Origin: an uncultured Nitrososphaeria archaeon
GTDB taxonomy: Archaea; Thermoproteota; Nitrososphaeria_A; Caldarchaeales; JAVZCJ01
DNA length: 43,781 nucleotides
Direction: 5' to 3'
Assembly: GCA_964532175.1 (NCBI GenBank)
Contig: CAZHGP010000005.1
Location: 1 to 43,781, forward strand
This document shows positions 7,952 through 43,030 of the stretch, piece by piece (position 1 is the first letter of the stretch; each line of letters starts with the position of its first letter). The position numbers and the translations under genes are program-made. The notes beneath the pieces were generated by a model that was given only the letters and a program-made list of their open reading frames with translations, was not told the origin of the DNA and made no database searches.

Positions 7952-8190
7952 AGTTTATCACAATAATGTCAATTTTTCTTATTTAATGATTTTTAAAGAA
8001 GTTAAAAGAAAGATAAATATAAATTTTTTCAAATTTTATTTTCTTTTTGCCTTTTTAATAATTTTTCTTAAAAGTTGATGTTATGAATATATTCTCTAAT
8101 TTTAATCTTCTAATATTTGGATATATTAAAGGAGATAAGATCTCTTTTTTGGCTAAATCCTTATATTTAAATTTGATTATTTAATTTCTT

Positions 8191-8517
8191 ATGTCATTGG
8201 AAGATAAATTAAAAGACTTTCTTGAAAATGGAAAAGATTGGGAAAGGAGACAAACAACAATTGCAGGGGTATTCCTTTTAAAAATCCCTCAATTAAAAAG
8301 CAAGCCAGCAAATATAGCTGTAGAATTAAATCCAGTAGATGAATATGGAAATCCAACTAAAAGAAGAGGAGTAATATTAAGAAATTTAGAAGAATTAAAA
8401 GAATTTAGAAATTTAATAAATAATGAAAAATTAGAATATCTTTTAAAAGTTTTAGATGATGTTAATCCAAAAGCTATAAAAAGAGCTAGACCAAGTAAAG
8501 AAGCAATAGAGATATGA
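8191..8517 (+). CDS. Conserved archaeal protein, PC4/Sub1-like ssDNA-binding fold suspected
   Basis: VELNPVDEYGNPTKRRGVILRNLEELKEF resembles the PC4 signature; ATGA overlap with the helicase gene. Confidence 0.6.
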   Translation: MSLEDKLKDFLENGKDWERRQTTIAGVFLLKIPQLKSKPANIAVELNPVDEYGNPTKRRGVILRNLEELKEFRNLINNEKLEYLLKVLDDVNPKAIKRARPSKEAIEI

Positions 8518-10682
8518 GCCTCTATAATAACCCTCTTATTAGAAAAGAAGTTTTAGAATATAGAGAGTTTCAAGATAATATAGCTAAAGAATCGATTAAG
8601 AAAAATACTTTAATTGTTCTTCCAACCGCTTTAGGAAAAACAATAATAGCTGCATTAATTTCAGCTTATTTTTTATACAATTTTTATGATAAGAAAATAT
8701 TATTCATGGCTCCTACAAAACCTTTAGTTAATCAACATAGAGATGTTTTCTTAAAAATCTTAAAAATAAAGCCTGAAGATACACAAATAATAACTGGAAG
8801 GATGAATCCAGACTATAGATTACATTTATGGAATAAAAGTAAAGCAAAAATTTTCTTTGCTACTCCTGAAACTGTTAGAAATGATTTGGATGCAGGATTA
8901 AACTTAAAAGATTTTAGTTTATTAATATTTGATGAATGCCATAGAGCTGTAAAAGATTATGCTTATACAAAAGTTGCTAAAAAATATGCAAGTCAATGTC
9001 CTTATCCAATTATTATTGGTTTAACAGCTAGTCCCGGTGCTAATAAACAAAGGATAAAAGAAGTTTGTGAGGCACTTTTCATAGAACAAATCATAGCTAG
9101 AACAGAAGAAGATGAAGATGTAAAAAAATATATCAATCCAATAAAAATGGAAATTAAAATAGTTAAACAACCCGAATCTTATATAAATATTAGAAATATT
9201 TTAAAAGAGAGTTTGAATGAGAAACTTAAAGAGCTTCATTCTTTAGGTGTTATTAAGAAAGATCCAAAATATATTTATAGAAAAGATTTGCTTGAAATTG
9301 GGGAAGAGTTAAGAATTAGAATTGAAGAATCTATGCTTGATGAAGAAAGAGGGACTTTATATAATATTTTAGCTATTCAATCTATTGCTTTAATACTTTA
9401 TCATGCTCTTGAACTTTTAGATAGTCAAGGAATGCATGCACTTTTGCATTTTATGGAAAAAATTGCTGAAGGAGAAAAAAGAATCCATAAAATTCTTATG
9501 AAAGATCCATCATTTTATAAAGTTTTTCAAAAAATAAAAGAAGGACCTATTGAGGAGCATCCAAAAATTTATTTATTAAAAAGGATAGTAGAAAATGAAT
9601 TAACTTTAAATCAAAATGGAAGAATATTAATTTTTACACAATATAGAGATACAGCCTCTTTTATTTCATCTATTCTTAAAGAAAGTGGATTTAAAGCTGA
9701 AAAATTCATTGGACATGGTCAAAGAAATAAAGAAATTGAGATGACTCAAGAAGAGCAGATTGAAATACTAGAAAGATTTAGAAATGGGGAAATAAAAATA
9801 TTAGTTTCAACGAGCATAGGTGAAGAAGGATTAGATATACCTCAAGTAGATTTAGTAATATTTTATGAACCTGTTCCAAGTGAGATAAGGTATATTCAAA
9901 GGAGAGGTAGAACAGGAAGAGCAAGAATTGGAAAAGTAGTAATTCTTGCTACAGAAAATACACTGGATATGGCTTATCTTAGAACAAGTAAAAGAAAAGT
10001 TAAGAAAATGATTGAAATAATAAAGAATTTAAATATGGAACTCAAACCATTTAAAAGATTGGAACAATTTAAACCATGCATTATTCCAATGGAAAAAATT
10101 ATTGAAGCTGAAAAATTAATAAAATTAGAAATGCCATCTCATAAAGAAGAAGCTAAACCTATTTTAATTCAAAGTGTGCTAGATATAATTGATGAATATG
10201 ATGAAGTATTGGAAAAGTCTTTTTATAAAGAAGTAAATGCAATTTCAAAATATATTTTAAAGAAAGTTTTAGAAGCTGGTGAAAATGGAATAAGCATAAA
10301 ATCATTAATAGAAGAAGGTGAATATGAAGGTTTAAGTCCTGGAATAATAAATGCATCTATTAAGAAGCTTGAAAAAGCAAACCAAATATATTTAAAAGGA
10401 GGAAAAATTATGCCATATGGATATAGCTTTATGGAAAATATTTTAAGTGGAAAAACAAGTTATGAAGCTAATACTCATGAAATAGAGATTGAAAAAATAC
10501 TTCCTGGAAAAGCTATAGTAATAGTAGATGATAAATGGCATGCTATTTTGGAATCCTCAGAATACTATGGTCCAAGACAGCTTATAAAGAAAGGAAATAG
10601 ATTCAAAGCAGCAGCAAAATTATATCATTTAGATGGTAAATTATATATAAGAGTCTATGGTGTAACAGCATACTTAGATTAA
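8514..10682 (+). CDS. hef: Hef/FANCM/Mph1-type SF2 helicase without ERCC4 nuclease domain
   Basis: LPTALGKT, APTKPLVNQH, DECH, GLTASPG, GEEGLDIP, QRRGRTGR; C-terminus has no ERKxxxD. Confidence 0.88.
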   Translation: MSLYNNPLIRKEVLEYREFQDNIAKESIKKNTLIVLPTALGKTIIAALISAYFLYNFYDKKILFMAPTKPLVNQHRDVFLKILKIKPEDTQIITGRMNPDYRLHLWNKSKAKIFFATPETVRNDLDAGLNLKDFSLLIFDECHRAVKDYAYTKVAKKYASQCPYPIIIGLTASPGANKQRIKEVCEALFIEQIIARTEEDEDVKKYINPIKMEIKIVKQPESYINIRNILKESLNEKLKELHSLGVIKKDPKYIYRKDLLEIGEELRIRIEESMLDEERGTLYNILAIQSIALILYHALELLDSQGMHALLHFMEKIAEGEKRIHKILMKDPSFYKVFQKIKEGPIEEHPKIYLLKRIVENELTLNQNGRILIFTQYRDTASFISSILKESGFKAEKFIGHGQRNKEIEMTQEEQIEILERFRNGEIKILVSTSIGEEGLDIPQVDLVIFYEPVPSEIRYIQRRGRTGRARIGKVVILATENTLDMAYLRTSKRKVKKMIEIIKNLNMELKPFKRLEQFKPCIIPMEKIIEAEKLIKLEMPSHKEEAKPILIQSVLDIIDEYDEVLEKSFYKEVNAISKYILKKVLEAGENGISIKSLIEEGEYEGLSPGIINASIKKLEKANQIYLKGGKIMPYGYSFMENILSGKTSYEANTHEIEIEKILPGKAIVIVDDKWHAILESSEYYGPRQLIKKGNRFKAAAKLYHLDGKLYIRVYGVTAYLD

Positions 10683-10693
10683 TTTTTTAAATT

Positions 10694-11665
10694 TTAACTT
10701 TCTGCTACAGATGTTACTTCTTCCTTTACTTCTTTCTTTTCTTCTTTAGGAATTCTTTTCATATATTCTTCCAAATCTTTAGATCTATTTCTAATAGTAA
10801 CCAATGTGACTCCAGATGCTTTAGCAACATCTTTTTGCATAATATCTATATTGTTTTCTCTACATGCTAAATATAATGCTGCAGCTGCAATTCCTACAGG
10901 ATCTTTACCTATTGTTGCTCCAACTTCTTCAGCTTTATTTAATATTTTAATTGTTTCTTGAATAATATTTTGACTTAAACCAAGCTTTGAAGCAATTTTA
11001 TTAACATATATAGTTGGATCCGTTAATTGAACTTTAAGATTAAGATACTTCATTAATAATCTATAATCTCTTGCAATATCTTTTTTAGTAACAATTGGAT
11101 ACGCTTTTTCAAATTCTCTTAAATCTCTTGGAGTTCCAGAAATTCTACAAGCAGCATAAGTTGCTGCAGCTATAATATTTCTAATAGCTCTTCCACGTAT
11201 AAGGTCTTTTTTTAATGCTTCTTTATAAATTTGCATAGCTCCTTCAATAACATAATCTGGTAAATTAAGCTTATCAGCATATATTCTTAAAACATTTGCT
11301 GCTTGTTCAAGATTTCTTTTTTGAGCAATATTTACTTGAGACCTATAATCAGCTTTTCTTAATTCACTTAAGTGTTTTTTAGCTTCTTTTGGAAGAGCTT
11401 TTCCTTGAGCATCTTTTAAATCTTTAGAAATAGTAGTCGATAAGCCTAAATGTTCATACATAATTGATTGTGGAGGACCAACACGACTTCTACTTTTTTC
11501 ACTTTCTTCAAACTCTCTCCATTCAGGACCTTGATCTATAACTATTTCTGATAATACGTATCCACAAGATTGACAAGATACTTCTCCTGTTCTACTATCT
11601 TCTATTAAGTACTTACTTCCACATTGTGGGCACCTATATTTTCCCAAAAATTTTTCTTTTTCCAT
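10694..11665 (-). CDS. tfb: Transcription initiation factor IIB (divergent copy)
   Basis: Zn ribbon CPQCG...CQSCG, DQGPEWR B-reader, two cyclin repeats, VTIRNR; SD GAGGTGAG at 11681-11674. Confidence 0.95.
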   Translation of the reverse strand: MEKEKFLGKYRCPQCGSKYLIEDSRTGEVSCQSCGYVLSEIVIDQGPEWREFEESEKSRSRVGPPQSIMYEHLGLSTTISKDLKDAQGKALPKEAKKHLSELRKADYRSQVNIAQKRNLEQAANVLRIYADKLNLPDYVIEGAMQIYKEALKKDLIRGRAIRNIIAAATYAACRISGTPRDLREFEKAYPIVTKKDIARDYRLLMKYLNLKVQLTDPTIYVNKIASKLGLSQNIIQETIKILNKAEEVGATIGKDPVGIAAAALYLACRENNIDIMQKDVAKASGVTLVTIRNRSKDLEEYMKRIPKEEKKEVKEEVTSVAES

Positions 11666-11755
11666 TTTAAATACTCACCTCTATTTCCTAATAGTTCATA
11701 GCATTAAAATTATTCACTAAAAAATGCTCACTAATTAGGAAATTCAACCAGTACG

Positions 11756-11810
11756 AACTAATATATAAACTTTTCTCTTTAAAATTATACAAACTAATAT
11801 ATAAACTTTT
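11756..11810 (-). promoter_or_regulatory. Tandemly duplicated BRE-TATA promoter of tfb
   Basis: Exact 19-bp repeat at 11756-11774 and 11792-11810; the minus strand reads AAAAG-TTTATATA-TTAGTT. Confidence 0.75.
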
Positions 11811-11997
11811 TCATAAAAATACTAATATTTTGAAAAAAGTATTATGATAAGATATTTAATTCTTCGATTTTATTAAATTTTATGTTAATATTTTTTTATT
11901 TTTGACAAATTAATATTAAAAATTTTAATTTAAGAAAAATGAGAATATAATTATTTAAAGATAAAGACTTAAATATTCTTAAAAGAATTTTTCTCAT

Positions 11998-37538: not shown

Positions 37539-38519
37539 ATGACTGAACCGTATGAGATTTCAAGAAAAGAAATTGAGATATTAAAAATATTAAGTGAATC
37601 AACAGAACCAATTGGTTCAACATTAATTCGACGAGAACTAGAGAAAAGAGGTTTTTTTCTTAGTGAAAGAACTATAAGATATCATCTTAGATCATTAGAA
37701 TTAAAAGGCTTGGTTTCAGGACATGAAAGAAGTGGAAGAACTATAACTAATAAAGGTTTAGAAGAACTAAGTAGAGCTTTAGTATCTCATAGACTTGGTT
37801 TTATTATTACTCGCTTTTTATCAATGGCTTATTCAGTTACATACGATCCAATTGTAGACTCTGGAATGGTAGTTGCTAATGTCTCAATTATAGATAAATC
37901 TTTCTATGATAAAACCATTGAAACAGTAAACTCTTTGCATAAAACTGGTTTATTATTAGCTCCATATATTAAAGTATTAGATGAAAATGAAGAATATCAA
38001 AACATAGTTGTTCCAGAAGGAAAGATTGCTCTTTTCACAGTTTGTGATTTGACTATAGATGGCGTGCTTATGCATGCTGGAATACCTTTATTCTTTAAAT
38101 ATGGTGGATTAGTTCAAATTGTAAATCATAAGCCAATACGTATTATTGAGTTAATATCATATGAGGGGACAACTATTCCTCCTCTTGAACTTTTTGTTCG
38201 AAGTAATCAAACTTCAATTGTTAAAGTGATGAAAACTGGTTCAGGCGTACTGCCTGCAGCTTTAAGAGAAATTGTTTCTGAAGCAAGAGAAAAAACACTT
38301 AGGATTCTTTCAACATTGAAAGATAGAGGATGGGGCGGTGTTTTAGCTCTAGGCGTTCCAAATGAAGCAATTCTTGGTGTTCCAGTAGCTATGGATAGAT
38401 TTGGTTTATGTATGATAGGTGGCCTTGCTCCAAGTGCAGCTCTTTTAGAAGAAGGTGTAAAAATTGAAACTTTTGCTCCTCATTGCCTAATCCCTCTTGA
38501 AGATATGAAAAGAATATAA
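37539..38519 (+). CDS. nrpR: NrpR-family nitrogen repressor (wHTH + single NRD/DUF128 domain)
   Basis: EILKILSE..PIGS...SERTIRYHL...GRTITNKG; VVANVS, TVCDLTIDGVL, ISYEGTTIPPLE, GGL. Confidence 0.88.
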   Translation: MTEPYEISRKEIEILKILSESTEPIGSTLIRRELEKRGFFLSERTIRYHLRSLELKGLVSGHERSGRTITNKGLEELSRALVSHRLGFIITRFLSMAYSVTYDPIVDSGMVVANVSIIDKSFYDKTIETVNSLHKTGLLLAPYIKVLDENEEYQNIVVPEGKIALFTVCDLTIDGVLMHAGIPLFFKYGGLVQIVNHKPIRIIELISYEGTTIPPLELFVRSNQTSIVKVMKTGSGVLPAALREIVSEAREKTLRILSTLKDRGWGGVLALGVPNEAILGVPVAMDRFGLCMIGGLAPSAALLEEGVKIETFAPHCLIPLEDMKRI

Positions 38520-38539: not shown

Positions 38540-39928
38540 TTAATGTTTATTCATTAAATAATTATTTATTGATGTAGCTGCCCTTTTTCCAGCTTCTATA
38601 GCTTTTATTACAGTTGCTGCACCACTAACTACATCACCACCAGCAAAAATTCCATTAGAGGCTTCTAAAGTTTCTGGGTCAACAATTATAGTTTTTTGTT
38701 TATTTGAGATTCTAATATTTCTCGAGGTATTTGTTGCTGCTATAGTGTTTGGTATATGTTCCGTTGCTATGATAACAGTCTCAGCATTATAGAATATTCT
38801 TGAACTTTCTTCTGGGATTAGTTTAGGTTTACCAGTTCTACTGTTTACTACTTGCTTTAATCTTATAAGTTCAACTTGTTCTACCCATCTTTTTTCATTT
38901 CCGATCAATCTTATTGGCTTAATTAATGATTGAAGTTTTACACCTTCTTCTATTCCACGCCTAATATCATCTACTCTCCCTACAATTTTCCTTTGATAAA
39001 ATATGGAAACTTCTTCTGCTCCTAATCTAAGAGCACATCTAGCAGCATCCATTCCTCTAGCACCTAATACTGCAACTTTGCCTCTAACTTTAATTGGAGT
39101 TTTACTTTTATATGGAAAAGTATATGCATTCATTAAATTTATTCTAATAAGAAACTCGTTTAAAGAATAAACTCCACATAGATTTTCACCTGGAATTCCT
39201 AAAAGTTTAGGCAATCCTGCTCCTGTGCCTAGAAAAATAGCATCAAATCCTTCATCAAAAAGGTCATCTATAGTTAAAGTTTTTCCTATAATAATATTCG
39301 TCTTTATTTCAACTCCAATTTTCTTAATATACTCAATCTCTTGTCTAACAATTTTTTTTGGCAAACGAAATTCTGGTATACCATAAATTAATACTCCTCC
39401 TGCTTCATGCAATGCTTCAAAAATGACTATATGATGACCCATTTTCGCTAATTCTGTAGCTACACTTAAGCCTGCAGGACCACTACCAACGATTGCTACA
39501 CTTTTTCCAGTAAATTTAGGAATATCTGGAATTTTTATTCCTTTTTCCAGATTCCAATCAGCAATGAACCTTTCAAGAGCTCCTATATTAATTGGATCAC
39601 CTATAGTATTCTTACATCCCATAACGCATAATTTTTCTTGTGGGCACACTCTCCCACAGATTGATGGTAAACAATTCTTCTCGCGAATTTTCTCATTAGC
39701 TTCTTCATAAGCACCTTTTCTAATGAGTTTTATGAAGTTTTTTATATCTATATGAAGTGGGCACATCTCTATACATAATGGATTCTCACATTGAAGACAT
39801 CTAGATGCTTCAGCCAATGCTTGTTCTTCACTATATCCTAAAGCTACTTCACTAAAAGTTTTTAAACGTTCTTCTATAGATAATTCTGACATCGGGACTC
39901 TTTTTAATCTAATATCTAAAATTTGCAT
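38540..39928 (-). CDS. NfnB/SudA/GltD-family flavoprotein with degenerate NADP(H)-binding loop
   Basis: EASRCLQC..PLC..MCP, CGRVCPQEKLC, GSGPAG, YGIPEFRLPK, FAGGDVV; second Rossmann loop reads VLGARGMDAAR. Confidence 0.88.
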   Translation of the reverse strand: MQILDIRLKRVPMSELSIEERLKTFSEVALGYSEEQALAEASRCLQCENPLCIEMCPLHIDIKNFIKLIRKGAYEEANEKIREKNCLPSICGRVCPQEKLCVMGCKNTIGDPINIGALERFIADWNLEKGIKIPDIPKFTGKSVAIVGSGPAGLSVATELAKMGHHIVIFEALHEAGGVLIYGIPEFRLPKKIVRQEIEYIKKIGVEIKTNIIIGKTLTIDDLFDEGFDAIFLGTGAGLPKLLGIPGENLCGVYSLNEFLIRINLMNAYTFPYKSKTPIKVRGKVAVLGARGMDAARCALRLGAEEVSIFYQRKIVGRVDDIRRGIEEGVKLQSLIKPIRLIGNEKRWVEQVELIRLKQVVNSRTGKPKLIPEESSRIFYNAETVIIATEHIPNTIAATNTSRNIRISNKQKTIIVDPETLEASNGIFAGGDVVSGAATVIKAIEAGKRAATSINNYLMNKH

Positions 39929-40762
39929 TTAAATTTCCCTCATAATTTTTAGAGCAGCTTTCTCCTCTTCATCATACATATGGATTCTTGCTTTAAACTC
40001 TTCAAAATCTACAAGATGAGCATCAAAATCTGGGCCATCTATACATACAAACTTAGGTTTTCCATCAATGGTTACTCGACAGCATCCACACATACCTGTA
40101 CCATCAATCATTAAAGAGTTAAGACTAACAATTGTTTTAATCTTATAAGGTCTTGTAATATCTGAAATATTTTTCATCAATGTTGCTGCTCCCACAGCAT
40201 ATACCAAATCGAATCTTTCATTCGATTCAAGCAATTTTTTAAGAACATCACCAGCATATCCCTTAATTCCTTCAGAACCATCATCAGTAACTATGTAAAA
40301 ACTATCACTCAATTTCTCAAATTCTTCCTTGTAAATTAAGAATTTTGATGTTCGTGCACTTATAATGGTTGTTATATTATTACCAACTTCTTTTAGTTTT
40401 TTTGCTCTTTCATAAGCTGCTGCAATTGCTACTCCTCTACCAACAATGCATACTTTTCCATATAATGCTATTTCACTTGGTTTTCCTAAAGGACCTACTA
40501 AATCATGGATTACATCTCCAACTTCTAATCTTCCAAGCTCTCTTGTTGATGCCCCAACTTCTTTAAAGACCAATGTTATCGTTCCTTCTTTAGGATCCCA
40601 ATCTATGAGTGTTAAAGGGATTCTTTCACCATCCTCACTCACTCTTAAAATTACAAACTGTCCAGACTTAGTTTTCTTAGCAATCAATGGTGCTCTAACT
40701 TTTATAGTCTTAACTCCTGGAGCTATTTCTTTTTTAAAGATTATTTCATTCTCCATTTTCAT
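39929..40762 (-). CDS. NfnA/SudB-family FAD/[2Fe-2S] subunit
   Basis: GQFVILRV..GERIPLT, GPLGKP, TDDGS, MIDGTGMCGCCRV, CIDGPDF. Confidence 0.9.
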   Translation of the reverse strand: MKMENEIIFKKEIAPGVKTIKVRAPLIAKKTKSGQFVILRVSEDGERIPLTLIDWDPKEGTITLVFKEVGASTRELGRLEVGDVIHDLVGPLGKPSEIALYGKVCIVGRGVAIAAAYERAKKLKEVGNNITTIISARTSKFLIYKEEFEKLSDSFYIVTDDGSEGIKGYAGDVLKKLLESNERFDLVYAVGAATLMKNISDITRPYKIKTIVSLNSLMIDGTGMCGCCRVTIDGKPKFVCIDGPDFDAHLVDFEEFKARIHMYDEEEKAALKIMREI

Positions 40763-40773
40763 TTAGCTCCTAC

Positions 40774-41412
40774 TTATTTTCTGTAAAGACCTACTGAAAT
40801 TGCTTTAATAATTTCTTCAGGTTTTTTTCCAAAGTAAATCATATCCAAGAAAGCTTTTTTCAAATCTGTTCTCTCATTATAAAGATTAAATCTTTCTAGA
40901 GCAATATCCAGGATTTCTGATATGATAGGCATTTTTTGTTTATAAATCCTTCTTGCAATATTCCAGCATTTGCAGAAATTAGAGTAGTCCAATCCTAGAT
41001 TAAAATATTCTGCTAATATTGCATATACAATTTCTTGATTTGAAAGTTTCTTAAAAAAACGTTTCTCAAAGTATCCTTTTATCTCTTCATTTTTGCTAAT
41101 GCTATAAAGATAACTCCAATAAATGTAATTGTAGAATATATCTGTAGTTCTATCTTGAAAGTCTGGACAACTAATACCTGGGTTATGTCCTTTAGCACAG
41201 ACTATATTACCATCTATATCTCTCCTATCTTCAAAGTTTTTGCACTCGATACAGAATCTTGTCTTAGATGCTGTATTTCTTACGCCTTCAAACTTATCTT
41301 GAAAATCTGGACAACTAACGCCGGGATTATGATTTTTAGCACAGACTATATTACCATCTACTTCCATTCGGTCTTCGAAATTTTTACATTCAAGACAGAA
41401 TCTTAAAAACAA
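40774..41412 (-). CDS. Uncharacterized protein with two tandem 4-Cys repeats and a helical C-terminal domain
   Basis: RFC.ECKNFEDR...DGNIVCAK.HNPG.SCPDFQD occurs twice; lies within the operon. Confidence 0.8.
   Translation of the reverse strand: MFLRFCLECKNFEDRMEVDGNIVCAKNHNPGVSCPDFQDKFEGVRNTASKTRFCIECKNFEDRRDIDGNIVCAKGHNPGISCPDFQDRTTDIFYNYIYWSYLYSISKNEEIKGYFEKRFFKKLSNQEIVYAILAEYFNLGLDYSNFCKCWNIARRIYKQKMPIISEILDIALERFNLYNERTDLKKAFLDMIYFGKKPEEIIKAISVGLYRK
41152..41403 (-). repeat. Intragenic tandem duplication (two 108-bp units, 144-bp period)
   Basis: aa 4-39 (41403-41296) and aa 52-87 (41259-41152) are near-identical in protein and DNA. Confidence 0.9.
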
Positions 41413-41422
41413 ATCTCATCAC

Positions 41423-43030
41423 TTATGATAGCATATTTTCCAAAATATTATCTGCTCCTTCAATTAATGGTATACCAGTTACTTTTGCAGCTCTTTCAGA
41501 TAATGCTACTAGATCATGCCTATCGAGCAAATTAAGTTTCCACTTTCTTGCTCCGGCCATTAATTGTTGTAAGCCAACCTTAATTCTATCCATGTATGTG
41601 TATAATCCAATGGCTCCCCAAGGTATATCTTTAAATTTCTCATGAAAAATTGCTTTTAGATCAGGAACGCTTATGAAAAATTTTTCTGGTGAATCACCAA
41701 AGAGTTCTTCAAAGTACTTTGGCAATAACCCTTTTCCAGCTAGTTCAGCAAAATAAGTTGATTTCATTACAGCAGTTAATGGTGCTCTACCCATTAATAT
41801 AGCTTTTACGTATGGCCCATTACCAAAATTGCTCATAGCAATAGCTTTAAATATTTGTGTTTCATCTATGAAACCTCCAGCAATTACTATATCTGGTACA
41901 TACCTCCCTTTTTTATTAAGAAGTACTGCACATTTTAATACTTGAGCTTCAAGATAAACTGTTGGTGTACCCATTTCATTCATCATTGGCACAGGACTCA
42001 TTCCAGTACCACCACCAGCACCATCAAAAACTACATAATCAATTTTTGCTTCTGAAGCAACTTTCATTGTAAAAGCTACTGCTTCTGGACTATAAGCTCC
42101 AGTTTTCAAGCTCACTTTTTTAGCACCTTGTTCTCTTAACCATTCTATATCTTCAATGAAGTTTTTCTCTTTTGGCATACCAACTCGACTATGTCTCTCA
42201 AAAGTCCTAAAAACACCTTGTTTATAAGCCTCTTGAACATTTTTATCTTCTGGATCTGGTATAACGATATAGCCTCTTTTCTTTAAGAGAATTGCTTTTT
42301 CTAGATCATTTATTCTAACTTCTCCTCCAATTGCTTTTGCTCCTTGACCCCATTTTCTTTCTATAACATTTACTTCAAGTTTAGAAATTGCATAGATATC
42401 TACTCCTAGTCTTTGATCCTCAACATTTGTTTGAACTGCAATATTTCCATATTTTCCATCCCAAAATTTTCGAAATGCTTCAACTCTCCTTTTCAATTCT
42501 GGCGAATGAGTAACTTTTCCATTCTCAATCTTTGCTTCAGGATCCATTCCACAAACATTTTCTCCTATGGTAACTATTATTCCAGATAAAGCTCCACCAA
42601 TTGCTAATCCATCCCAATTTACTTTAGCTACATCTGTAGAACCATAAGCACCTATCATGACTGGTATTTTAAGAGGGATACCCCCAACATTTGTTTCTAT
42701 ATTTACATTTGGAAAAATTGCAATATCAGAATCTTCATCTATACCCATAGTGCCTAAAAGTCTAGATTGAATATTAAAATGAGACCAATCTAAACCATAA
42801 TCTTTTAAAGCTCCTGCTGTGCTATTTCCAAACATGCTAGGATCTGGATAAAGTGCTTCTCTTCCTCTGAATGCAGATAATGAAACTTGACATAGAAATG
42901 GGCATTCCTTAATACATAATGGACATAAACCGCTAGTTGGGCAAACATCCTCAACCCTAGTTTTAGTTCTGGTTGTAGACATAGAATTTAAATATGAAGA
43001 ATTCTTATGAATAGGATTAGGCATAATCAA
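41423..43030 (-). CDS. Stand-alone FMN-binding glutamate synthase domain protein (GltB2-like)
   Basis: ERKWGQGAKAIGGE, FDGAGGGTGMSP, IAGG, MGRAP; N-terminal Cys cluster CPTSGLCPLCIKECPFLC. Confidence 0.87.
   Translation of the reverse strand: MIMPNPIHKNSSYLNSMSTTRTKTRVEDVCPTSGLCPLCIKECPFLCQVSLSAFRGREALYPDPSMFGNSTAGALKDYGLDWSHFNIQSRLLGTMGIDEDSDIAIFPNVNIETNVGGIPLKIPVMIGAYGSTDVAKVNWDGLAIGGALSGIIVTIGENVCGMDPEAKIENGKVTHSPELKRRVEAFRKFWDGKYGNIAVQTNVEDQRLGVDIYAISKLEVNVIERKWGQGAKAIGGEVRINDLEKAILLKKRGYIVIPDPEDKNVQEAYKQGVFRTFERHSRVGMPKEKNFIEDIEWLREQGAKKVSLKTGAYSPEAVAFTMKVASEAKIDYVVFDGAGGGTGMSPVPMMNEMGTPTVYLEAQVLKCAVLLNKKGRYVPDIVIAGGFIDETQIFKAIAMSNFGNGPYVKAILMGRAPLTAVMKSTYFAELAGKGLLPKYFEELFGDSPEKFFISVPDLKAIFHEKFKDIPWGAIGLYTYMDRIKVGLQQLMAGARKWKLNLLDRHDLVALSERAAKVTGIPLIEGADNILENMLS

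Follow-up and report, generated by a model that had tools for sequence, protein, structure and literature searches.

What becomes of a flavoprotein pair built around two pyridine nucleotides when the binding sites for both have been rewritten? The question is raised by a four-gene operon in a 43,781-nucleotide stretch of DNA from an uncultured Nitrososphaeria archaeon (contig CAZHGP010000005.1, positions 1-43,781, assembly GCA_964532175.1), the whole of which is referred to here as the window. The third and fourth genes of this operon encode a pair of the NfnAB (SudAB) type. Flavin-based electron bifurcation has its simplest model in NfnAB, which is defined by the use of NADPH at one flavin and of NADH at the other. 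The pair in the window retains the cofactor motifs of this architecture and has both nucleotide fingerprints altered. It is a monophyletic offshoot of NfnAB under purifying selection, not a decaying copy, and it is linked to genes for a Cys-rich protein, a flavin mononucleotide (FMN) enzyme and an NrpR-type regulator.

The nucleotide-binding regions of the two subunits

The operon occupies window positions 38540-43030 on the minus strand and consists of four tightly packed genes separated by spacers of 10, 11 and 0 bp, with no gap between the small and large subunit genes. Their order is an FMN glutamate-synthase-like enzyme, a Cys-repeat/helical protein, the small subunit and the large subunit. 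The features of the pair itself are as follows, the DNA coordinates of the motifs having been verified by translation.

38540..39928, minus strand: large subunit, 462 residues, NfnB/SudA/GltD-like, with flavin adenine dinucleotide (FAD) and two [4Fe-4S] motifs and a remodelled NADPH domain (Pfam, TIGR01316 and PDB matches)
39053..39064, minus strand: GARG, residues 289-292, the glycine loop of the former NADPH site, two residues shorter (alignments, translation)
38987..38998, minus strand: YQRK, residues 311-314, in place of YRR(T/S)E and followed by a 3-residue deletion (alignments, translation)
39929..40762, minus strand: small subunit, 277 residues, NfnA/SudB/PyrK-like, with FAD barrel, remodelled NAD domain and a [2Fe-2S] domain carrying CGCCRV (Pfam, NF004862 and PDB matches)
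40400..40441, minus strand: GRGVAIAAAYERAK, residues 108-121, altered NAD(H) glycine loop (alignments, translation)
40175..40195, minus strand: VGAATLM, residues 190-196, in place of VGPxxMM (alignments, translation)

This is the NfnAB/SudAB arrangement, with a small FNR/PyrK-like subunit (FAD, [2Fe-2S]) and a large GltD-like subunit (FAD, two [4Fe-4S]) encoded side by side. The large subunit matches Fer4_20 (1.5e-39) and Pyr_redox_2 (2.8e-19) in Pfam, and its best PDB matches are 4ylf_B (8e-128) and 5jca_L (2e-120). Both subunits were aligned with the structures of Thermotoga maritima NfnAB (4ylf) and Pyrococcus furiosus NfnI (5jca) and NfnII (5vj7). The glycine loop of the large subunit reads VAVLGA--RGMDAAR against VAVIGAGNTAMDAAR in the structures, a 2-residue deletion within the GxGxxA turn; an initial annotation made from the sequence alone had noticed the changed motif (VLGARGMDAAR). 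Further along, IFYQ/R---KIVGRVDD stands against IVYRRTEREMPARREE, with a 3-residue deletion after YQR (IFYQR---KIVGR aligned with IVYRRTEREMPAR). The same annotation had read YQRK in place of YRR and a loss of the EMPA segment. The first Arg is indeed replaced by Gln, but the second, equivalent to Arg325 of P. furiosus NfnI-B, is kept; and EMPA is not merely lost, since beside the 3-residue deletion it is substituted by KIVG. The altered positions are otherwise close to fixed: canonical sequences have Gly in place of Arg291 (66/66), Arg in place of Gln312 (66/66), Pro in place of Val316 (65/66) and Ala in place of Gly317 (66/66). The large subunit thus departs from the NADPH fingerprint (GxGNxAMDxAR; YRR..EMPAR; a DExGRRR loop). 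It passes the TIGR01316 (gltA) cut-off by a small margin (478.5 bits against 471.75), and the name of that family, which rests on NADPH use, is not supported by the motif test.

The small subunit, which matches DHODB_Fe-S_bind in Pfam (9.6e-12), NF004862 (4e-112) and, as best PDB matches, 5jca_S (8e-87) and 4ylf_A (6e-77), is altered in an equivalent manner. It has CIVGRGVAIAAAYERAK where the structures have LLVGGGVGIATLYPIAK, with the core GRGVAIAAAYERAK for GGGVGIATLYPIAK, and AVGAATLMK where they have AVGPTIMMK; the structure alignments bear out both changes as initially described. Comparison of 62 variant with 58 canonical rows, each of at least 250 residues, shows that canonical proteins have Gly at Arg109 (58/58), Gly at Ala112 (54/58), Pro at Glu118 (53/58) and Pro at Ala192 (58/58). 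The NAD(H) fingerprint (GGGVG(I/T)A..YP; GAR; VGPxxMM) is replaced by GRGVAIAAAYE, SAR and VGAATLM. The segment VAIAAAYE(R/K) is common to the 62 variant members of the 120 full-length rows, and 54 of these also carry GRG and VGA. The names currently attached to the two proteins, 'NADPH-dependent glutamate synthase' and 'FAD/NAD-binding protein', are probably wrong for this clade.

The remaining cofactor motifs are intact in both subunits, as the initial annotation had stated. They are GSGPAG and FAGGD for FAD and, invariant in the clade, the large-subunit cluster motifs RCx2Cx4Cx3CP and GRVCPQExxCx3C (motif definitions from PMC6405883) and the small-subunit [2Fe-2S] motif DGTGMCGxCRV...C with D220, C225, C228 and C240. 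In the window protein, residues 220-231 (40070-40105) read DGTGMCGCCRV, with an additional Cys, C227. All members of the variant clade have this residue, canonical proteins having mostly Ala, Gly or Ser; a changed cluster ligation or potential is possible.

Relaxation of conservation in the large subunit is confined to a single domain. When 48 variant rows are set against 66 canonical rows, the ratio of column entropy (variant to canonical) is below one in the Fe-S domain (0.66) and in the N-terminal and C-terminal FAD domains (0.70 and 0.89), but reaches 1.03 in the NADPH domain. The DExGRRR loop, in which D, G and R are each found in 66/66 canonical sequences, is variable in the clade. This loop bears the equivalent of Arg382, which like Arg325 is among the NADP(H)-contact residues of P. 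furiosus NfnI-B given in PMC12221290. The relaxed domain and variable loop fit the loss of the old ligand.

Origin, distribution and selection of the variant pair

Are these changes private to one genome? Both large-subunit deletions were found in 53 of the best 120 homologous clusters, the other 67 being canonical. Among these 53 variant clusters, of 60-95% identity, the new residues do not vary. In a FastTree phylogeny of 121 rows (large subunits of 430-520 residues, 7 of 122 rows outside that range having been dropped from an earlier version), inferred from an alignment of 472 columns that includes five trait columns, a single branch with a Shimodaira-Hasegawa-like support of 99 separates the 53 variant sequences from the 68 others, and the trait changes once. 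Their sister group consists of two canonical sequences, P0051 and P0052. The variant clade occurs in Bathyarchaeia, Nezhaarchaeales, Methanomethylicia and the hot-spring genus considered here; source labels of the close homologues are Nitrososphaerota, Bathyarchaeia, Nezhaarchaeales and Methanomethylicia. The changes are therefore a fixed signature of a monophyletic subfamily, which answers in the affirmative the suggestion that orthologues be checked for them. The window DNA, of about 25% G+C, is present in hot-spring metagenome runs, with no RNA run listed among them, and comes from a genome of 1.47 Mb estimated to be 97% complete.

The initial annotation had named relaxed selection on a private change as one outcome that would undo its interpretation. 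This outcome is contradicted by the 53 clusters and by ratios of nonsynonymous to synonymous substitution (dN/dS) of 0.09-0.24, obtained within the genus for all four operon genes and for the NrpR gene with two further species of 84-86% identity. The variant reading frames are moreover intact in 8/8 genomes belonging to six families. That the pair might be a decaying NfnAB copy, made redundant by a canonical paralogue of its large subunit, is hardly credible on these grounds. Such a paralogue does exist in the same genome, on contig C13 (52% identity, GAGNVAMDSAR, YRRTFEEMPAR), and a broken large-subunit frame was found in one Bathyarchaeota contig, but the only NfnA-type small subunit of the genome is that of the operon, the other match being a PyrK beside PyrC.

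The broken frame lies at 160-1328 of locus L020 (contig JANXET010000020.1), where the variant large-subunit gene is present as overlapping frame pieces (an open reading frame (ORF) of 346 residues; tblastn matches at 160-537, 300-593 and 492-1316) next to an intact NrpR gene. It could reflect real decay limited to this one genome, or else a frameshift or a misassembly. The canonical paralogue on C13 (27837-30806, ORF 1492-2886 of this locus) stands alone. In a second genome (G001) it lies between genes for an ABC-2 permease and a CooC-like ATPase, without a small-subunit gene, as a stand-alone 'GltA' type.

Partner genes and their arrangement

Three further genes accompany the pair in the window.

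40774..41412, minus strand: Cys-repeat/helical protein, 212 residues, no family assigned, encoded just upstream of the variant pair (repeats, AlphaFold2 model, synteny in 8/8 genomes)
41423..43030, minus strand: FMN TIM-barrel protein, 535 residues, 'glutamate synthase-related / FMN-binding glutamate synthase family' (Pfam, source family names)
37539..38519, plus strand: NrpR-type regulator, 326 residues, winged helix and NRD domain (Pfam NRD1_2 1.8e-74, HTH_12 3.6e-21)

The NrpR gene, for a nitrogen/2-oxoglutarate regulator, is convergent with the operon and lies 20 bp from its end. The FMN gene was called from TTG at 43030. An ATG at 43024, two codons further in, is preceded by GAGGGA and is likely to be the true start, to judge from homologues that start nearby.

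The Cys-repeat/helical protein and the NrpR gene were both missing from the initial list of parts. Residues 1-90 of the Cys protein contain two repeats of the form Cx2C-KNFEDR-x8-C-x3-H-x5-C (Cys4-His) and residues 90-206 form a helical domain. Only the latter is confidently predicted by AlphaFold2, the repeats having a predicted local distance difference test score (pLDDT) below 50. The protein matches no Pfam or NCBIfam family above cut-off; a Foldseek search of the model against the PDB returned no match with E <= 0.001, and a protein-atlas feature search none above 0.77. Three long matches (P0396, P0401 and P0407) proved to be repeat proteins of the Cna_B/Ig type, whose similarity was put down to composition. 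A 178-residue relative, P0374, is more informative: it carries a 2x[4Fe-4S] ferredoxin domain instead of the Cys repeats, fused to the same helical domain (residues 79-192 of the window protein). A ferredoxin domain in the place of the repeats argues that they are themselves an electron-transfer domain, with a putative metal centre. Their occurrence in other gene arrangements (see below) suggests that they are a small electron-transfer domain serving glutamate-synthase-type FMN enzymes, and the helical domain, which is found only with the variant pair, suggests an adaptor to it. Predictions of a complex of the large subunit, small subunit and Cys protein gave scores of 0.60, 0.67 and 0.67 against 0.70 for an unrelated-protein control, and were taken to weigh neither for nor against a complex, whose physical assembly is presumed.

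The FMN protein matches Glu_synthase (PF01645) with an E-value of 1.2e-10 over residues 289-399 only (profile positions 189-296) and has no NCBIfam match. Its N-terminal Cx2Cx3CPx2C motif (residues 36-47) is conserved, C36, C43 and C47 being invariant and C39 nearly so. The AlphaFold2 model has a mean pLDDT of 61.8, and Foldseek matches it to FMN TIM barrels of a general kind, such as mandelate dehydrogenase and glycolate oxidase, with template modelling scores of 0.35-0.5, too weak to name a substrate; phmmer against PDB sequences gave nothing relevant. The operon does not provide the glutamate synthase set (GATase_2, FMN synthase domain and GXGXG): the 97% complete genome has no GATase_2 (PF00310) match, and its sole GXGXG match is FwdC, encoded next to FwdA and Mch. 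The genome does encode glutamine synthetase and glutamate dehydrogenase. It also has the FMN protein in a second copy (77% identity; locus L005 on contig C74, ORF 124-1728), which stands by itself: the 3.2 kb obtained contain no neighbour of Nfn-like, Cys-repeat or NrpR type.

How general is this arrangement? Of 401 genomes scanned within the phylum, eight, from six families, encode the full-length Cys protein, and in 8/8 its gene is followed directly by those of the variant small and large subunits. The FMN family is encoded in all eight; its gene is directly upstream of the variant locus in five, 2.8 kb away in one and elsewhere in the genome in two. NrpR adjoins the variant locus in 7/8 genomes and also in the Bathyarchaeota contig mentioned above. 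Of 29 loci examined, six have NrpR directly after the FMN gene with nothing between. NrpR thus follows the FMN gene where the pair is lacking and follows the pair where it is present, which looks like a three-gene insertion between the FMN and NrpR genes.

As a control, 80 metagenome loci were fetched with the canonical sister protein P0051 (best match 67% identity, the contig of P0051 itself not being among them). All 80 encode a canonical large subunit and 71 a small subunit alongside, many of the others being cut by contig ends; no FMN, Cys-protein or NrpR match was found at any of the 80 within the stretches obtained. In one genome, G277, a canonical pair is linked with the FMN family (L082; contig C40, 6426-10558, minus strand): a canonical small subunit (272 residues), a canonical large subunit (478 residues) and an FMN-family protein (535 residues, 73% identical to that of the window) are encoded in a row. 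Their motifs are canonical (GGGNVAMDAAR and YRRTEKEMPAR; AGGVGVAEAYPIA in the small subunit) and no Cys-repeat gene was found in the row. This canonical trio without a Cys gene, a control for the variant operon provided by nature, suggests that the Cys protein goes hand in hand with lost nucleotide motifs. As the G277 large subunit does not lie near the variant clade in the tree, Nfn-type modules have been recruited to the FMN enzyme on at least two occasions, on one of them with nucleotide motifs and on the other lacking them.

Cys repeats also occur without the helical domain. In three genomes (G154, G056 and G063) a gene of the FMN family and one for a tungsten-type aldehyde:ferredoxin oxidoreductase (AOR) flank the gene for a short Cys-repeat-only protein of 108-110 residues, and in two genomes such proteins are encoded directly upstream of split archaeal glutamate synthase operons (GATase_2, a ferredoxin-FMN subunit matching PF01645 at 1e-141, and GXGXG).

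L049, 6636-11729: FMN, Cys-repeat and AOR genes in a row, with a divergent NrpR gene
L050, 6294-10090: FMN, Cys-repeat and AOR genes in a row
L051, 7399-11208: FMN, Cys-repeat and AOR genes in a row
L047, about 7993-11869: Cys-repeat gene upstream of split glutamate synthase genes, distance ~160-200 bp
L048, about 8172-11277: Cys-repeat gene upstream of split glutamate synthase genes, distance ~160-200 bp

At a further locus (L083, 5626-9543) the FMN gene directly adjoins an AOR gene, and no Cys repeat was detected. Both split glutamate synthase loci have a PhoU/AbrB-type regulator gene divergently upstream. Taken together, these arrangements suggest that the FMN enzyme takes electrons from interchangeable input modules. 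Its adjacency to NrpR and the link of the Cys repeats to genuine glutamate synthase operons lead us to infer a tie to the glutamate/2-oxoglutarate node. The motif GGAA-N6-TTCC, the NrpR operator consensus of Methanococcus, occurs three times in the window against 0.77 expected; one match is inside the large-subunit gene and none is upstream of the FMN gene, so that the matches speak neither for regulation by NrpR nor against it.

Possible functions and comparison with known systems

The rebuilt nucleotide pockets, in the company of a Cys-rich protein and an FMN enzyme, suggest that the pair probably supplies the FMN enzyme with electrons of some source other than NAD(P)H. Thioredoxin reductase homologues in which the motifs of the NADPH cavity have changed offer a precedent, since they take electrons from ferredoxin (FFTR) or F420H2 (PMC8154056). 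In the reading that we tentatively favour, while stopping short of calling it probable, the pair is a flavin/Fe-S module of Nfn descent for which NAD(P)H is no longer a partner; electrons would pass between it and Fe-S carrier proteins, in the service of the FMN enzyme. With the NADPH and NADH pockets rebuilt and both FADs, the [2Fe-2S] and two [4Fe-4S] clusters retained, the pair would no longer trade hydride with NAD(P)H and would act as a pure electron-transfer, possibly electron-splitting, module. The distal [4Fe-4S] cluster of the large subunit would exchange electrons with ferredoxin. The Cys-repeat protein, anchored through its helical domain, would form the electron path between the pair and the catalytic subunit, with its FMN and its Fe-S cluster (Cx2Cx3CPx2C), and this subunit would in turn reduce or oxidise a 2-oxoacid- or iminoacid-type substrate at the glutamate/2-oxoglutarate node. 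A rewired module coupled to the FMN enzyme had been put forward at the outset: the genetic tie to the FMN gene, absent from the canonical control loci, now stands, and a tie to the Cys-rich protein, likewise absent there, has been added. That NAD(P)H goes unbound, that ferredoxin is the carrier, that electrons are bifurcated and that the FMN protein is a glutamate synthase are still predictions from sequence.

Several observations weigh against this reading. The FMN gene is non-adjacent in 3/8 variant genomes, and eight of the 62 variant small subunits, a Methanomethylicia-type branch, keep GGG and VGP. The NAD domain of the small subunit is only slightly relaxed (entropy ratio 0.70, against 0.60 and 0.66). 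The rebuilt loops GARGMDAAR and FYQRKVVGR are nearly invariant in the clade (G289, A290, G292, D294 and R297 invariant, R291 in 47/48), as would be expected of a new role in structure or binding but not of an empty pocket; the retention of the Rossmann domains with conserved rebuilt loops could point to a new ligand or to an unusual mode of nucleotide binding. Equivalents of the NADP(H)-contact residues also persist (Arg325 as Arg in 39/48, Arg253 as Lys, Arg382 as Lys and Arg333 as Arg). Two flavins would seem superfluous if ferredoxin were the only donor, and in the other architectures of the FMN family it is plain what the input module oxidises (aldehyde or NAD(P)H), so that by analogy the module here should oxidise something as well. 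Finally, the FMN protein is only remotely like the FMN subunit of a true archaeal glutamate synthase (84 aligned columns), and its model matches alpha-hydroxy-acid oxidases first.

Some of these points would be met if the pair kept the use of pyridine nucleotides, in a non-canonical mode or at one site (for example NADH at the small subunit), and served as an NAD(P)H-oxidising module as GltD does for GltB. NAD(P)H-driven versions do exist, as the canonical pair of G277 tied to the same FMN family indicates; the persistence of Arg or Lys at the four contact positions, the well-conserved NAD domain and the branch with GGG and VGP all agree with it, and the change from YRR to YQR could move the preference from NADPH to NADH. 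We nevertheless regard retained NAD(P)H use as unlikely, given the loss of two residues within the GxGxxA turn and of three at the 2'-phosphate loop, the replacement of at least seven positions invariant in 58-66 canonical sequences, the relaxation of the NADPH domain relative to the rest of the large subunit and the restriction of the Cys protein to the altered pair. A new ligand of the rebuilt NADPH pocket might instead be F420H2, as in the deazaflavin-dependent thioredoxin reductases (DFTR) of methanogens; F420H2 would then drive the complex as a reductase, possibly a bifurcating one, that serves the FMN enzyme. Strongly conserved rebuilt loops would suit this ligand, and the genome encodes CofE (F420 ligase) and an FrhB-like protein (loci L164 and L166) together with Fwd and Mch of the tetrahydromethanopterin (H4MPT) pathway. 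NTR homologues that use F420H2 are known (PMC8154056), and F420-linked clusters of glutamate-synthase type have been proposed in anaerobic methanotrophic (ANME) archaea (PMC9012536). This reading is distinctly unlikely: the loop at residues 363-369 has become variable, not newly fixed, the co-inherited, dedicated Cys-rich protein is left unexplained, and no likeness to a known F420-binding motif was noted, although no search was aimed at such motifs. Genes for FwdA, FwdC and methenyl-H4MPT cyclohydrolase lie in a row elsewhere in the genome (contig C42, 6706-10014), so the organism has the H4MPT one-carbon pathway.

It is more doubtful still that the neighbourhood is incidental and that the pair acts alone, apart from the FMN enzyme, as a ferredoxin-linked oxidoreductase of a small molecule ('Xfn'). 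The non-adjacent FMN genes and the wider distribution of the FMN family (93/401 genomes, against 8/401 for the variant pair) would allow it, and for P. furiosus NfnII the use of an unknown X has been proposed (PMC8097209 and PMC12221290). Against this stand the FMN family in 8/8 variant genomes, the very short spacers in the window, the apparent insertion of three genes between FMN and NrpR and the Cys-repeat proteins that accompany the FMN family in other architectures. Equally doubtful, and bolder than the module that we favour, is a nucleotide-independent Nfn descendant in which the FAD of the large subunit would be served only by protein-bound metal centres, as in HdrA. It would split or merge electron pairs between a low-potential ferredoxin/[4Fe-4S] branch and a high-potential branch of [2Fe-2S], small-subunit FAD, Cys repeat and FMN, the FMN enzyme being an NrpR-controlled, ammonia-dependent glutamate-forming reductase. 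If true, this would follow the 'Xfn' logic with 2-oxoglutarate and ammonia as X and would constitute a new flavin-based electron-bifurcating class with a part in the nitrogen assimilation of uncultured TACK archaea.

Neither a pair of Nfn type whose nucleotide fingerprints are both altered, nor its Cys-repeat partner, nor its link to NrpR is described in the accessible main texts, supplements aside, of the full-text literature searched (including PMC6405883, PMC8097209, PMC12221290, PMC12506544 and PMC9012536). Compared with NfnAB/SudAB, the variant has the same two-subunit architecture and all FAD and Fe-S motifs, but both fingerprints are rebuilt (in the small subunit GRG, YE and GA for GGG, YP and GP), and it always occurs with the Cys-repeat/helical protein and usually with the FMN enzyme and NrpR, in contrast to 0/80 canonical loci. 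The clade would thus be a natural experiment on the Nfn scaffold without pyridine nucleotides. A close parallel, and a precedent, is P. furiosus NfnII ('Xfn', 5VJ7), for which an obstructed NAD(H) site and a possible high-potential partner X have been described (PMC8097209 and PMC12221290). Both are Nfn paralogues with a changed NAD(H) site in the small subunit, and 5vj7_B also departs from GGGVG. The large subunit of NfnII is, however, canonical (GAGNTAMDAAR, YRRGREDMTAR) and oxidises NADPH, and no Cys-repeat or FMN partner is reported for it in the accessible parts of these sources. The variant pair does not follow the NfnII pattern of a disabled small-subunit NAD site with an NADPH fingerprint kept in the large subunit; its lineage offers a concrete candidate for the X discussed for NfnII.

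GltB-GltD likewise combines a GltD-like Fe-S flavoprotein with a Glu_synthase-family FMN/Fe-S TIM barrel, here encoded near a nitrogen regulator, and by analogy the pair of [4Fe-4S] clusters would feed the FMN subunit. The variant differs in lacking an NAD(P)H fingerprint, in its extra PyrK-like subunit and in an FMN protein that is only remotely GltB-like. More broadly, GltD-like modules are defined by NAD(P)H oxidation with transfer of electrons through [4Fe-4S] clusters to a partner (PMC8097209); the variant has the Fe-S path and an FMN partner gene but not the fingerprint. FFTR and DFTR are also flavoenzymes of two Rossmann domains in which the motifs of the NADPH cavity have changed and the domain has been kept (PMC8154056). 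They belong to another family with no close homology to the variant pair and provide an analogy only. The operons of Bathyarchaeia with FMN, Cys4-repeat and tungsten AOR genes share the FMN family and the Cys-repeat domain and, in one case, NrpR. There the input module is the AOR, and the Cys-repeat protein has no C-terminal helical domain. Seen beside them, the variant pair would add an electron-input module to a widespread, uncharacterised FMN family encoded next to NrpR, whose enzyme may be a missing piece of nitrogen/glutamate metabolism in Bathyarchaeia, Methanomethylicia and their relatives.

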